NCBI RefSeq assembly: GCF_038025025.1
Contig: NW_027117339.1
Coordinates: forward strand, 1,426,001-1,490,000
Direction of reading: 5' to 3'
Origin: Phyllosticta citribraziliensis
Taxonomy: Eukaryota
DNA: 64,000 bases
The notes beneath the pieces were generated by a model. The model was given only the letters and a program-made list of their open reading frames with translations. It was not told the DNA's origin and searched no databases. Positions 5,304-60,843 of this stretch are shown one piece after another. Positions within the stretch are counted from its first letter, which is position 1, and each line of letters opens with the position of its first letter. Position numbers and translations under genes: made by a program.

Positions 5304-7463
5304 TGTTGCGACTGTGAGGTGGTGATTCGGCTGTCGAGACTGTCGTGGCTGGAGAGCGAAGTTGGATGGAAGGTCGAGCAGATTGTCGTGGGCCGGCTCG
5401 CTTCTGGGCACGGACCACCACGCTGAGTTTTTACTTAATCCGCCGGGCGACAACTTCAACCCATCACCCTGGCCTCCTTCACCACCACCACCAACAATTT
5501 CCATCCACGCCTGCTTGGACGCTACATGCTGAGAATCTATGCCCCGTTCTCTGTGTCAGAAGCGCAGCCAGGGACTCGGTGGTGGGATGAGTTTCTCTCG
5601 CGAATGCTAACCGCAGCCTGTGCCACAGGCATTTTCAAGGTACGTTTCTTCTTGGCTCCTCTTCACCATCCCCTTTGTGATGAGCAAACATCCGTTAAAA
5701 AGTCAACTGGCACCTCTACTGCTAGGGGCTTGTAGTATCTTCCTGCGGGAAGAACTGCTTGCCTCGATGATCTTCAAGGACTTCTGAAATTCCCCCCCTC
5801 CAATACACTACTCGACATGCAACATGTGTTTTGCGCATCTCGCTGACGAGTATCACTAGGCTTTTGCGAAGAGGAAGATGAAGGGTTCTCGAACCGTTAC
5901 CATGGCTGCCGCAATGTCTCCCAACCACGATCGGGGGCGCTCTGTTCCTGGAGTTTGTTTTTCTTGTACTCATGTCCGGCTTGCACTGCAGAGGTTTTTC
6001 CTGGAGGCCTTGTACCGCTCGCCCATACTTTTAGTTTCAAAATGTTCACTGTTTCGTCTTAATCTTCCATTCCGCGCAAATTGGCGCAAGACATCGCTGC
6101 GAGACTGTCGGGGCTCAGCTCATGCGAATATCCGTCGGCTTCCCAGTCCGTGAAAACGCCTCACGAGGTGCAGTTGATTCGAGGCAATGAACAAAGTCGC
6201 CACGAATGGAGGAATGCACAGCACTTCGCAAAGCTTGGGTATGAGCGTGTGTGTCCACCCAGTATTCCAGGCCTTGTCAATACTAGGTGTTGCTAATGCG
6301 TGCCAGCTTCGATTTGACTTGCGCGTGACGAGGCAATTCACATTCCAAACTTCAGTGGACAACAGGCCAAAAAGAGGCAATCATGTTCTTGGAGTGACTG
6401 CATCGTGACAAGGTCTGCAAGTTACGGGAGCGCATTGAAAGCCGTATAGGCCAGCCGTCAGGGGTGGCCGGCCTGATGATGGCGGTAGTACAACCGCTTA
6501 CTGGAGCTGCCAACGATTGCCCAGCCACCTAGGCCCACTCCGCCCAACACGCGGCTGAGGAAGAGGCAGCTGAACTATTGAGGAACATGGCTGTGCCCGA
6601 TCCAACTACGTTCCCTCCAAGTCAATCGGAATTCTTGGTCCAACCATTGATCGTTGGATGGCGTGAGCAGTGATGCCAAAGTAAGCATCAGTTGGAGGGA
6701 TCCGGATGTCATTCAAGACCGGGAATCCTACTTCTCCATGGCAGACTGACACGATGCAATAGGGAAGAAGACGATCCCAATGCGGAAGTCATTAATAAGG
6801 AGCCCGCGGCCTAGCCCGAGGAGCATGGCATAGTAGTCCTGTCCAGGAGACCGCTTGTTTCCTCCTGCACGAGAGGACGACATCACGTCGTCTCTAGGCC
6901 GTGGCACCGGGCGGGCACCACATAGGGGATGTGGTGTCCAGGTACCCTAGAACTGTGTGTGACAGCAAGATTAGGGGTACGGAGTCAGCGAGGTTTTGAT
7001 GAAACAATCGGCCGACCAACCAAAAGTGGCGGAGCACAAGACACTGGTGGACGCGGTACGTCTTGTGTTGGTGTTGGCAAAGGTATTGGCAGCCGGCGGG
7101 GAGCGGGGTGATTGGCGGCGCGGGTAGCGGCTTTGATCGGTGCTCCGTGCCTGGCTAGGCCTGATGTGGTCGAATGCTCGCTGGGCGGCATATCAAATCA
7201 CCACCACCTCCCCTTCCTTTCCCTTCTCTCTCCCCTCACGCAGTCGTTCGTTTCTCTATATCGCAGTCGCTCGCTCATTTACATCCCGCTGCGGCATCGC
7301 GCCGAAGTTATTCCGGCCCAGGCCTATCCTGCCGACATCTCCCATTTTGCGACACCTACATCTTCCCTCCTTCTTCTTCACCTTTTCAGTGTGCCTCTAC
7401 CTTGCTGCGCGGTTTCTTCTTTCCGTTGACCGTCTCCTCACTCCTTTTCACCATTTCGGCGCT

Positions 7464-8952
7464 ATGCGCTCACCCCTCTTACTCCTAGCGCCTTTTGCGC
7501 TGGTCCTCACTGCCAGGGCCATGCGCAATGGTTGCGAGGATGCCGTCAAAGATGAATCTGGAAACTACTACTGCGAGCCTGCTGTCGAGACGATCCGCTA
7601 CGTCAACATTTCTGGATCCGGTACCTACCAGACGCCCTCCCTCATTGAGGGTGCGGGTACTTGCGTTGATTTTATCGACATTCCCTACGGAGGACCGCTT
7701 GCGCCGTACAATGAAGAGGTTCGCGCCCCTTTCCTCTCATTATGACCAATGTTGACTTTCTCTTCAGATTACCATCATTCTTCGTGGACCCCTCAAGCTG
7801 CGCCAGTTTGCAGCCTACAGCCTCAACATCAGCTGCCAACAGACCGGAAACAGCAAGCGACACGCCGACGCAGATGCGGACGCGGATGCGGATGCGGATT
7901 CGCACAAGCACCATCATCATCATCATCATGGCCACAAGCACCAGCACCTCCACGATGACGCGGAAAAGAAAAAGCGCGGTCTTGGCGACATCGTTTTTGC
8001 GGAAATCGACGGCGAATTGGTCTCGTGGATTAATACCTACGGCGGCCCCCCTGCGCCGGGCCCTCCTGTCAGCAGTGTCACCTCGACAACTGCCAGTCCC
8101 ACCTCGTCCCCAGTCTCAAGCTCTAGCATTCCCTCATCCGTCCCCACGAAGTCTGAGCCCTCTGGTGACTGCGACGTTTGGGAGAGAATCTCTTACTACA
8201 ATTCCGAAGAGAGGACTAAGGATGGTCTCACATTCTTGACTCATCCGTCGTATGCAAATGCGATTGCTTACGCTGGTTCGGACGGCAAGACAGCGGTCGA
8301 CGAGCCAACCCTCTTCGACGGCGAGCTCGAGAATATGGAAGAGATGTTCATTCAGACTGACAAGTCTTGCTCGGAAGACATTGGCACGGAATGCCCTTAC
8401 TACAAGGAGGGAGACAAAGCTTACCGTAAGTCTCACTTGAACTTTGCCCACACACTTTTGCTAATTTACGCAGACGGATACGGTGGTGTCAACAAGGCCT
8501 TCTTCTTCGAGTTCATGATGCCCGATACTGGCTCGCACGCCTCCGTCTCGGAAATGGAGAGCAAGTACGAAGCAGACAACATGCCCGCCATCTGGTCTCT
8601 GAACTCGAGGGTCATGACCAACCAGTATGGCTGCAATTGCCATTTGAGCGGTTGTGGCGAGATTGACTTTTTTGAGATTATGAATCCCGGCAATTACCGC
8701 ATGAAGTCCACGATTCACGGCAAGACCGGCTTTAGCGGCGGCGATTCTCACTACATTCGGCGTCCCACTGACAGCTGGATGTCTGCCTGGGTTGTCTTCG
8801 ACGGAGACAAGATGGTCCTCAGAGTAGTCGACCCCAACACCGAAGCCCCAGAAAGCTTGACGCCTGAGCTTCTCTCTTCGATCATCGGATCTGACGAGGA
8901 ATTCGACATCAACATCGAAGGCAAGCTGGCCGTCTTCGAGGTTGCCTCGTGA
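7464..8952 (+). CDS. Secreted/cell-wall Tos1/YJL171C/PGA52-like protein (putative glucanase-like)
   Basis: Signal peptide MRSPLLLLAPFALVLTARA. Introns 7719-7767 and 8426-8473. Motifs GPLAPYNEE|ITIILRGPLKLRQFAAY, KAFFFEFMMP, NMPAIWSLNS and CNCHLSGCGEIDFFE. Confidence 0.85.
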
Positions 8953-9837
8953 CCAATCAACGACTCCAACATGTCGGTTTTCTTTTTCTTTGTAATTATA
9001 GCTCGCATACCACAGGCAGCTGGAACACCGGAACGGCGCGCGTGGCTTTTCACCCGGTGGGCGATGCTGGCGTTTCAAAAGGCTCTGGTCACATTCTGAG
9101 CAGCGCAGGGGACGTCTGGCGCAAGGCTTGCAGTTTTGCCTTCAATTCACGACGACGATGAGCCGCATTCGAGGGATACCCAACAGCGGGTCTGACCAAT
9201 CAGTCTTGCTTTTTCTTTCTTCTACTTTCGCGGGTAGGTACTGTAGAGCTGCGGTTGCAAATTCGGCTGGCTAGGATGTAGCTAGTTAGTTTTTGAGGGT
9301 GAACAAATTCGAGCATCAGGTTGCTATACGCTAGATGCCTTTTCGCGATGATGTCACGAGAGATGTGAGTCTGGAGTCGGTGGTGGTTAGCTGCAGACAG
9401 CACAACAGCCGAGGCACAGGCTTCCGGCCGCGAGCATCACGCGCCGGCCGAGTCCAGACAACGGAACGACGGTCAACGTCTGCGCGCACGCTCGGTGGCT
9501 CGCTCCAACCCGACATATATCTGTGCACGCGCAGCCCCAGGCGGTTCCCTGAACAGAAGGGATTCTCGAATTCTTCGCTGAATTTTGGCAGAGTTTATGG
9601 CGCAAACTCACTGACAGCTGGGCCGGGGTCCTGTCTCGTGCTCGCTTATTTGCCTAGGTAGGTCCGCGCCCGAGGTGGCCTTGACTACCGCCGGCACCTC
9701 CGCTCCGCCCTGCCCTACCAACGTCGTCTTTGACATCACCGCATCACCCACCGTGCGTCCCTCGTTCCACCTGCTCCATCTCCAACGCCTCTGTCGTAAA
9801 ACGCATGTCAGCCGCGTCTGCTTGTCGTTGAGAGGAC

Positions 9838-11372
9838 ATGGCTTCCCCTCCGAAGCCGTGGGAAAGATCAGGACCCGGAGGCACTTCGACCGGTACGTTC
9901 CCGCCACCCACCCGCCTGTCTGCGGTGCGACGGCTCGCCGTTGACAACCACAACAAGAGCGGGGTCCAAAGGCATCCTTCTCTCGACTAACTTCGTCTCA
10001 GGCGCAGCGCCAACATCGATCGGCGTCACTGCCGCTACTGCTACTGCGAATGCCGCCTCGTCCTCTGAACCGCCGGCTCTGCCCTCGCGACCAAACTCCC
10101 TCGCTTCTTCCGTAAACCAAAACGCCTCCCTCCATTCTGGCATGAACATGAACGCGAATCGTCCGTACGGTTATGGTTCCTCGTACAGCTCCTACTCGTC
10201 GCCGTACTCGCGCATGGGCGGATACGGTGGCTACGGATCCATGGGCTCCATGGGCTCCATGGGTTCCATGTATGGCGGCGGCATGTACGGTGGAGGATAT
10301 GGCGGATATGGCATGGGCGGTGGCATGGGAGGAGGTGGCATGTATGGGGGAATGGGAGGCATGCCCGGCGATCCAAACAACCCTCAGGGCCTGACCCAGT
10401 CCTTTAGCCAGAGCACCGCCGCGACGTTTCAAATGATTGAGAGCATCGTGGGCGCATTTGGCGGATTCGCGCAAATGTTGGAAAGCACATACATGGCGAC
10501 ACACTCGTCATTTTTCGGTACGTCATCTTTCCAGTTGTGGTTGCTCAGTCTTTGACCAAAGAACAGCCATGGTGTCCGTCGCCGAACAGTTCGGCAATCT
10601 TAGGCAGACCTTGGGATCCGTCCTGGGCATTTTCACGTTGATGCGGTGGTTCCGGACTGCCATCGCAAAGCTCACTGGTCGAGCTCCTCCCGCGTCGTCC
10701 AAGGAATTGACGCCATCCAACTTTGCATCTTTCACAGGTCGCAACCCTGACGGTTCTCCTGCGCCTGCGCGCCCATCCAAGAAGCCATTCATCATCTTTA
10801 TGCTTGCCGTGTTCGGTCTGCCTTACCTCATGGGCAAGCTCATCAAAGCCATGGCGCGGTCTCAGGAGGAGGAAGAACGCCGCCGTCTTGAAGCCAACGG
10901 TCAGCTCGTAGGTCCCGAGGAGCAGCTTGACCCCAGCAAATGCGAGTTCTGTCGCGTCGTCTATGACTTTACTCCCGACACCAACGCCAGCGCCGTCCAA
11001 GGGGTGGACCTGTCCGTCAAGAAGGGCGATCTTGTTGCGATCATTAGCAAGACGGACCCGCTTGGGAACCCGTCCGAGTGGTGGCGCTGCCGTGCCAGGG
11101 ACGGTCGCATGGGATATCTCCCAAGCCCGTATCTCGAACCGATTCAAAGGAAGATGCCGGCACAGATCCAGAGCGCAAGTCAGGCTGGGAGCCCGGTTCA
11201 CAGTCGAGCGCAGACCATGACAAGCAGCGGGAGCGGGAGCCGCACGCAGACCATGACGTCGGCGACGTTAAACAAGGCCAACGAGGCCAAGGAGCAGGCC
11301 GTTCCGGTGGTGCAGGGCAAGGCCAACGATATCGGCATTGACAGTTTTCAAAAGGGCATGTTCCGTTCGTAA
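9838..11372 (+). CDS. PEX13: Peroxin 13 (peroxisomal docking protein with SH3 domain)
   Basis: Starts MASPPKPWE, then a YG/GM-rich region and TFQMIESIVGAFGGFAQMLESTYMATHSSFFAMVSVAEQFGNL. C-terminal SH3 domain (WWRCRARDGRMGYLPSPY). Introns 9893-10001 and 10518-10566. Confidence 0.96.
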
Positions 11373-60188: not shown

Positions 60189-60764
60189 TCGCAAGAGTAG
60201 GTTTGAAATTGACCAACAGGTCGGAGGGACAAGTAAAAGACTAGAGCCAGATGGGGCCAAGGCGGGAGGGCCCGCGAGGAAGGGAGGTTGAAAGGTTGAG
60301 AGGGAGGTTGAGAGAAGGGGACAGTTTAGCGAGATGGTAGTGGTTGAGGTGGGGAGAGGCAGGAGGAAGGTAATATCGGCAGGCAAGCCAAGGCAGTGGC
60401 TCGCACAGGGTTGGATGCAACAAAGGGCGTGGAAGGATGACTGAGACGGCGTCAGTTGGGTTGGGCGGATTTGGTAAGAGGTCGGGTTTGTCGAGCACAA
60501 GAGTCGTGTGGGACTTGGAGGGCAGTAGGACGGACGTGCGTGTTTACGGGTCGGCAAGCTGCATGAACGCAGCAGGCAAACGGAGGCCGAGTCAGGGAGA
60601 GGAAGAGGAGGGAAGAATACCTTCACATGGGGCGTAGAGACATTTGGTATAAAGCGGGCGTGGGGTGGGACGAGCTGTTTGCGGCGGCGGGGCGGAGAGG
60701 AGGGAGGAGTCGTGGTGGCCAAAAGGAGAAGGGGAGCGGAGCAGGTGGACGAGAAGGAGAGGGG

Positions 60765-60843
60765 AGAGGAGGAGGAGGAGGAGGAGGAGGAGAAGAAGAA
60801 GAAGGAGAAGAAGAAGAAGAAGAAGAGAGAGAGAGAGAGAGAT
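60765..60843 (+). repeat. Compound purine microsatellite (GGA)n-(GAA)n-(GA)n
   Basis: Uninterrupted A/G-only tract ggaggaggag...agaagaagaag...gagagagaga, upstream of SOK1. Confidence 0.9.

Follow-up and report, generated by a model that had tools for sequence, protein, structure and literature searches.

A stretch of 64,000 nucleotides from the genome of Phyllosticta citribraziliensis (assembly GCF_038025025.1, contig NW_027117339.1, positions 1,426,001 to 1,490,000 of the forward strand), here called the window, carries on its + strand a three-exon gene (7464-7718, 7768-8425 and 8474-8952) that encodes a protein of 463 residues. Judged by its sequence, the gene is a Phyllosticta member of the Tos1 / YJL171C family of wall glucanases. 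Between the two domains of the encoded protein lies a segment of 41 codons (7855-7977), read in the frame of exon 2, in which a histidine-rich stretch is bounded on either side by a Lys-Arg (KR) site of the type cut by the kexin Kex2. The His-rich stretch between two such sites recurs across the family far above chance, and it is probably a linker that is cut by kexin as the enzyme is secreted.

Exon 1 (7464-7718, 85 codons) supplies the start codon and the opening portion of Tos1_N; its N-terminus is a hydrophobic run ending in Ala-Arg-Ala that by eye looks like a signal peptide. Exon 2 (7768-8425) completes Tos1_N and then encodes the His-box segment, followed by a conserved hairpin, a Ser/Thr/Pro linker and the beginning of the Tos1_C domain, and exon 3 (8474-8952), supported by translation and contigs, ends with the stop codon. 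The two introns, 7719-7767 (49 nt) and 8426-8473 (48 nt), have GT..AG borders. Splicing was read from contigs assembled from five runs whose library kind is not on record as RNA, and it entails no claim on the level of expression. One contig in each of the runs X1 and X2, which belong to two studies, skips both introns precisely and has no other mismatching letter: the junction at intron 1 was reported as 7716 to 7766 with a cut of +2, which joins 7718 to 7768. A contig from a related organism (X3) is spliced at both same sites, with a loose end that runs into exon 2, and the contig of another relative (X5) is unspliced and retains intron 1.

The profile of Tos1_N is likewise continuous across intron 1, exon 1 ending at its position 44 and exon 2 resuming at position 45. 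Intron 2 is in frame and free of stop codons; it is missing from the X1, X2 and X3 contigs and absent from all the homologues in a 16-sequence alignment. The contigs confirm the reading frame of the His box after splicing. The removal of 7719-7767, on which an initial annotation made from the letters alone had built its peptide, is exactly what the X1 and X2 contigs show. The orthologue of P. citrichinensis has two deposited gene models (P0179 and P0003) that are 16 residues apart: the longer model translates intron 1, which in that species is in frame, and the 49-nt intron 1 of the window is removed in the contigs. The spliced X1 contig (2143 nt) spans about 7077-9316, that is, 223 nt upstream of 7300 and 216 nt past 9100. 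This extent suggests long untranslated regions, including the CT-rich 7180-7460; their true ends cannot be given by contigs.

Both domains of the family are recognizable. Tos1_N (PF10290) is matched by exon 1 over profile positions 2-44 (E 1.8e-05, 25.5 bits) and by exon 2 over positions 45-62: neither piece by itself reaches the 27-bit cut-off, the domain being divided by the intron, and full-length orthologues carry both Tos1_N and Tos1_C. The Tos1_C domain (PF10287, 8179-8874), which resembles glycoside hydrolase family 16 (GH16) and is interrupted by intron 2, is matched over profile positions 3-225 of 228 with an E of 8.8e-53 and 179.7 bits (cut-off 27). Its residues E298, D300 and E303 are invariant in the 16 aligned sequences and form an E-x-D-x-x-E array, a spacing that we take to be the GH16 catalytic motif. 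The closest proteins carry the annotation TOS1-like glycosyl hydrolase and come from Phyllosticta, with identities of 353/373 aligned residues in P. citrichinensis, 308/378 in P. citricarpa and 275/368 in P. capitalensis, followed by Botryosphaeriaceae at approximately 47% identity. These domains and homologues agree with the Tos1-like host protein that had been proposed for the peptide. A sequence search of the PDB found no Tos1 structure; its 17 matches (E ≤1) all align to the poly-His of the query and were set aside on inspection as affinity tags or low-complexity sequence.

The His-box segment opens with AAG CGA at 7855 and closes with AAG AAA AAG CGC at 7977. The first dibasic site (7855-7860), which corresponds to K30 and R31 of P0002, is followed by His-Ala (HA) and five Asp-Ala (DA) dipeptides (7861-7896) encoded by a GATGCG-type hexanucleotide array. 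The core (7897-7965) comprises 23 residues, 12 of them His, begins with Asp-Ser-His (DSH) and contains six CAT triplets, and the second basic site, KKKR (7966-7977), precedes GLGD. Sequence and positions are exactly those that the initial annotation had described. His is concentrated here: the 35 residues between KR and KKKR include 13, and the remainder of the translated stretch has 7 in 359 residues. At the DNA level GATGCG is repeated 4.5 times at 7873-7899 and CAT six times at 7912-7929, and comparable short arrays are ordinary in the window, where they occupy approximately 25 places. No repeated core peptide is present in the protein, which has a single His-rich unit; in the sense of repeated cores, the label 'pheromone-style' that had been attached to the segment does not apply. 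Two Cys codons flank the region, one in NISC just ahead of the first KR (7834-7836) and one in GDCDVW just ahead of Tos1_C (8170-8172). On the - strand, an open frame of 147 codons (7672-8115) lies over the His and Asp-Ala repeats, with poly-Met opposite poly-His, and is taken as a by-product of the repeats.

The stretch that follows the second site, GLGDIVFAEIDGELVSWINTYGG (7978-8046), is itself conserved family-wide in alignments, with a consensus of about V-T-A-x-I-D-G-x-x-V-S-W-x-N, and is predicted to form a beta-hairpin. In the linkers of some members (P0028, P0032, P0062) this hairpin segment is doubled in tandem.

The distribution of the segment was followed through the family with a profile search of 1.84 billion representatives, which gave 1117 family members at E ≤0.001, the best 150 of these 1117 being examined. 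Altogether 170 proteins were considered: 87 have both anchors (RGPxxL before the linker and WxRxxYY after it), and 83 fragments or divergent forms were dropped. A His box was defined as at least 4 His in 12 residues, with KR required within 30 residues upstream and within 20 residues downstream. By this measure 55 of the 87 members have a His box, and 40 of these 55 boxes are flanked by KR at either end (44 when RR is also counted). When the flanks were shuffled 1000 times, KR fell on both sides in a mean of 2.0 of the 55, with a maximum of 8, and the arrangement therefore exceeds chance. KR is also denser in the linkers (1.35 per 100 residues) than in the C domains (0.19), a sevenfold difference. 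Short linkers occur in 11 of the 87 members, none of which has a His box.

The same order is visible in the alignment of 16 homologues: the first KR is kept in at least 90% of them, a His-rich stretch ensues, and a closing (E/K)KR-G/A-x-G-D is conserved in Botryosphaeriales, Microdochium and others, with shorter versions of the His-rich stretch in the relatives from Orbilia and Candida. Carriers of the KR-His-KR arrangement are found in Dothideomycetes, Sordariomycetes (Xylariaceae, Lasiosphaeria), Lecanoromycetes (Xylographa), Pezizomycetes (Tuber), Orbiliomycetes and Saccharomycotina (Tortispora, Ambrosiozyma). As judged from these sequences, a stretch rich in His and enclosed by two Lys-Arg sites is typical of the Tos1 family, most members of which have it, and the two Kex2-type borders that had been noted in the window have a conserved counterpart in the 40 boxes counted above.

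The residues between the first KR and the His box tell a different story. P. citrichinensis has three DA dipeptides to the five of the window. P. citriasiana (P0004) reads KR-HA-PA-HE-NE, P. citricarpa (P0180) has, where the window has Asp-Ala, a (His-Glu)n run that is longer than the His-Glu run of P. citriasiana, and P. capitalensis starts with KR-SH-AA and lacks an in-register X-Ala run. Compared with the window, the contig of a near relative is shorter by 6 nt in the DA run (one DA) and by 3 nt in the CAT run (one His) and carries an additional 6-nt insertion. Sequence comparison thus marks this spot as a hotspot for differing dipeptide repeats. The DSH start is restricted to the window and P. 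citrichinensis: after trimming, the predicted start would be HEH in P. citricarpa, HEN in P. citriasiana and HER in Botryosphaeriaceae, and an X-X-His start is not conserved. The initial annotation had looked to orthologues for a conserved KR-(XA)n-XXH-polyH-KR; its outer frame of KR, His and KR is borne out; conservation does not extend to the X-Ala run or to the DSH start. Microsatellite slippage, the outcome that it had set against its own proposal, does occur in the fine structure, the DA and His runs differing in length among relatives, and does not extend to the KR-His-KR arrangement.

Dipeptides of the X-Ala type are not confined to Phyllosticta. Runs of at least two X-[Ala/Pro] dipeptides directly after KR are in register at 16 of 136 KR sites, against 5 one residue off register; for runs of at least three the figures are 10 and 1. 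At the first KR the count is 11 of 71, where shuffling gave 2.07 on average and 0 of 2000 shuffles came to 11. These raw counts are inflated by kinship among the members. On a FastTree tree of the C domains the in-register changes number 11 against 5, and 6 against 1 for runs of at least three, an excess that is suggestive and not significant. As proof of STE13 use it was rejected, on these numbers of changes and because it is confounded by the preference of Kex2 for certain residues past its cut. Independent cases of X-Ala or X-Pro spacers comprise Tortispora caseinolytica (KR and seven X-Ala), Botryosphaeriaceae (KR-SA-RP-SP), a Xylariaceae species and Xylographa vitiligo. Most likely, to go by these comparisons, the (Asp-Ala)5 of the window is a young, species-specific hexanucleotide expansion of an acidic or small spacer that is often found after the first KR in the family.

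The structural context was examined in an AlphaFold2 model of the P. citrichinensis orthologue (P0003), built from 67 aligned sequences (predicted template modelling score 0.76). An N domain (residues 22-110) and a C domain (220-460) are confident, and residues 127-155, the His box, have a predicted local distance difference test (pLDDT) score below 50; the box is accordingly predicted to be a disordered part of the linker. Beyond it, strands 157-162 and 165-170 form the hairpin, at a pLDDT of 55-65, and a second disordered stretch, rich in Ser, Thr and Pro, comes after. The best 30 or so structural matches are nearly all GH16 endo-1,3-beta-glucanases, with Z scores of 6-7.3 that lie below the safe level of the tool; the top match is 3dgt (Z 7.3, root-mean-square deviation 3.6, 159 aligned). 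Most matches cover residues 217-460, and four rows extend back to residues 32-37.

The cysteines may bear on how the domains are held together. The N domain has three conserved Cys and the C domain has five; if all were paired, at least one disulfide would have to connect the two domains. In addition, the NISC and GDCDVW Cys form a lineage-specific pair: both are present in 5 of the 67 aligned sequences, and either alone in 0. This pair, which flanks the His-box region, occurs in Phyllosticta, Ophiocordyceps australis and one further lineage, a pattern of joint occurrence from which we infer that the NISC Cys and its putative partner in GDCDVW form a disulfide.

A His-rich element of this kind had been described before, contrary to the initial presentation of the peptide as cryptic. 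The Tos1 'His-Box' was named in yeast by Bader, Krauke and Hube in 2008 (BMC Microbiol 8:116; PMC2515848), with one Kex2 site after it and a second one before it. The window conforms to their description: 12 of 23 residues are His, KKKR stands four residues past the last His cluster, and KR at 7855-7860 supplies the second site. The paper also reports that recombinant Candida albicans Tos1 was cut in vitro by four Kex2 enzymes into pieces whose sizes were as expected, and that acidic and small residues are over-represented at positions P1' and P2', and moderately at P4', of Kex2 cut sites, a preference repeated in a later paper. The authors speculated that the His-Box serves in wall attachment and that its processing alters localization. 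Among the papers listed by literature searches, none takes the Tos1 His-Box further, those on Tos1 and Kex2 that were consulted adding only citations to the 2008 description, and searches on histidine-rich Tos1 and on amino-terminal copper- and nickel-binding (ATCUN) sites with Kex2 gave no report of a released His peptide. The His box in Tos1 is thus already described, and the window presents a lineage-specific elaboration of it with an Asp-Ala repeat.

The same element is shared, in part, by other enzymes. Like the yeast His-Box, the segment of the window belongs to Tos1, connects the N-terminal domain to the remainder of the protein, carries positive charge and many His, and has a Kex2 site on each side (PMC2515848); it differs in coming from a filamentous Dothideomycete, in its much longer poly-His (12 in 23) and in its (Asp-Ala)5 spacer. 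According to the same source, wall glucanases of the Sun4/Sun41 and Scw4/Scw10 type, likewise secreted enzymes of wall glucan, also have a His-rich stretch that ends at a Kex2 site. Their box, however, is N-terminal, with one site, in the manner of a classic propeptide, whereas that of Tos1 is internal with two sites, so that its excision leaves two chains. For the wall protein Scw4, PMC7916363 reports that processing by yapsin induces activity and that yapsin activity partly complements Kex2.

An internal segment removed in this way would have a familiar analogue. In proinsulin, the C-peptide is a connecting segment between two dibasic sites that is excised by a protease of the kexin family, and the two resulting chains are held by disulfides. 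The protein is unrelated to Tos1, for which a two-chain state is deduced from the parity of the Cys and from domain packing.

The explanation that we favour, and consider probable without regarding it as secure, is that the segment is a His-Box linker cut by kexin during secretion to give a two-chain Tos1 glucanase, the His piece being a connecting peptide or propeptide. In the precursor, the disordered His-rich stretch would join the small N-terminal domain to the remainder and would lie exposed between its two Lys-Arg sites. Kexin of the late Golgi would most likely cut one or both of them, turning the single chain into an N-terminal chain of approximately 95 residues and a C-terminal chain, which domain packing and at least one interdomain disulfide would hold together, and the role of the excised His-rich piece would be that of a propeptide or connecting peptide. 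The (Asp-Ala)5 run suits both the preference of Kex2 for acidic or small residues past the cut and the dipeptide motif of STE13. That kexin cuts the protein in this fungus, that the enzyme has two chains, that a disulfide tethers them and that any STE13-type trimming takes place are steps that we infer.

Several observations weigh against this explanation. The box is evidently dispensable, since 32 of the 87 members do without it, every one of the 11 short-linker members among them, and by the distances set above 15 of the 55 boxes do not have KR on both sides. Cleavage by Kex2 was obtained in vitro, on yeast protein made in bacteria. In the AlphaFold2 model the first KR is placed in a weakly predicted helix (107-118, pLDDT approximately 58), and the two-chain form with its disulfide is deduced from counts of Cys. 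According to PMC2515848, positively charged residues are under-represented after Kex2 cut sites, and the P1' residue in the window is His; some high-scoring sites, moreover, stay uncut.

That last point also speaks for a different reading, which we hold to be rather unlikely and in which the His box is retained in the mature protein, one or neither of the sites being used efficiently, and would either tether it to the wall in dependence on pH or metal, or switch it between a wall-bound and a secreted form. It would accord with the idea of wall attachment and localization put forward by Bader et al., and Tos1 members are indeed recovered both among the alkali-sensitive wall proteins (PMC11657238) and in the medium (PMC4664879). 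The coupling of KR to both sides of the box is nevertheless hard to explain if cutting is irrelevant, and the fragments of C. albicans Tos1 had the expected sizes. Lower still stands the possibility, very improbable in our view, that the stretch is neutral low-complexity sequence without a function of its own, generated by slippage of GATGCG and CAT in a tolerant linker. The tandem arrays, their differing length in near relatives, the abundance of similar short arrays in the window, the predicted disorder and the members devoid of a His box would all fit; but a His-rich stretch with its flanking KR has been kept from Dothideomycetes to Saccharomycotina, beyond the reach of a shared microsatellite, and only the fine structure (the DA run and the length of poly-His) looks neutral.

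The proposal from which the analysis started goes further than the linker cut by kexin: Kex2 would cut both sites, Kex1 would trim the basic tail and an STE13-type peptidase would remove the six X-Ala dipeptides, leaving a 23-residue peptide with a DSH (ATCUN) start that is selected for binding of Cu, Ni or Zn or for antimicrobial action. We regard this as improbable. Two of its premises drawn from the literature are borne out. Repeated XA or XP after a KEX2 site, X often being Asp or Glu, is the published STE13 motif (Vogt et al. 2022, PMC9769878), and the first KR of the window is followed in register by HA and five DA; histatin-5 does begin with DSH and has there an N-terminal ATCUN site that binds Cu and Ni (PMC7409060). 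In-register X-[Ala/Pro] runs are commoner than off-register ones and recur in independent lineages, and Tos1 is among the most abundant proteins of the C. albicans secretome, with an apparent abundance of 9-12% (PMC4664879), so that an excised peptide would be plentiful. Against this, DSH is limited to two species, the only other X-X-His start in Phyllosticta being the HEH of P. citricarpa, the in-register excess is not significant by lineage and is confounded by the P1'/P2' preference of Kex2, and the X-Ala run is a length-variable microsatellite in front of a single-copy core. Metal binding by a peptide with 12 His is chemically likely; the role of a free metal-binding or antimicrobial peptide is possible but unsupported.

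The resemblances on which the released peptide draws are accordingly partial. With precursors of the alpha-factor type and Kex2-processed repeat proteins (PMC9769878) the window shares a secretory protein, KR, repeated Asp-Ala as the X-Ala dipeptide and, on the C-terminal side, basic residues on which Kex1 could act, but it has one peptide inside a 463-residue enzyme rather than tandem cores in a small dedicated precursor, and its core is not conserved as a defined peptide. The likeness to histatin-5, which is also short, His-rich and cationic with a DSH (ATCUN, Cu/Ni) N-terminus, involves no homology: it would need cleavage at KR and the exact removal of six dipeptides, and it is not conserved in the genus. 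A bolder combination of both ideas, in which Tos1 glucanases, ranking among the wall enzymes that fungi secrete most abundantly, are two-chain enzymes of the proinsulin kind whose excised peptide is a secreted metal binder, trimmed here by STE13 to a histatin-like DSH ATCUN peptide and produced one-for-one with the enzyme, appears to us a long shot of the same order. If it were true, selection for a peptide with a defined N-terminus would account for the X-Ala and X-Pro spacers that recur past the first KR in lineages far apart.

Two further features of the window may be recorded. The neighbouring gene (9800-11372, + strand) encodes peroxin-13, with Peroxin-13_N over two overlapping frames and an SH3 domain thereafter; an intron near 10437-10555 is indicated by the split of Peroxin-13_N over the two frames. 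The N-terminus of this protein is rich in Gly, Tyr and Met and includes an array of TCCATGGGC repeated 3.7 times at 10238-10270. The largest tandem array of the window lies at 60694-60842 and consists of dense purine-rich repeats (GGA, AAGGAG and AGA units and a 30-nt unit).

To the picture of the His-Box in the wall enzymes Tos1, Sun and Scw, which received its name in 2008, the present comparison adds that the His box with KR on both sides extends beyond yeasts to at least five classes of filamentous ascomycetes, that the coupling of the flanking KR sites to the box is far above chance, and that the Cys counts point to a mature enzyme of two chains. If the excised piece is released, a peptide rich in His would leave the fungal cell alongside an abundant enzyme of the wall, and this would bear on the handling of metals at the cell wall.

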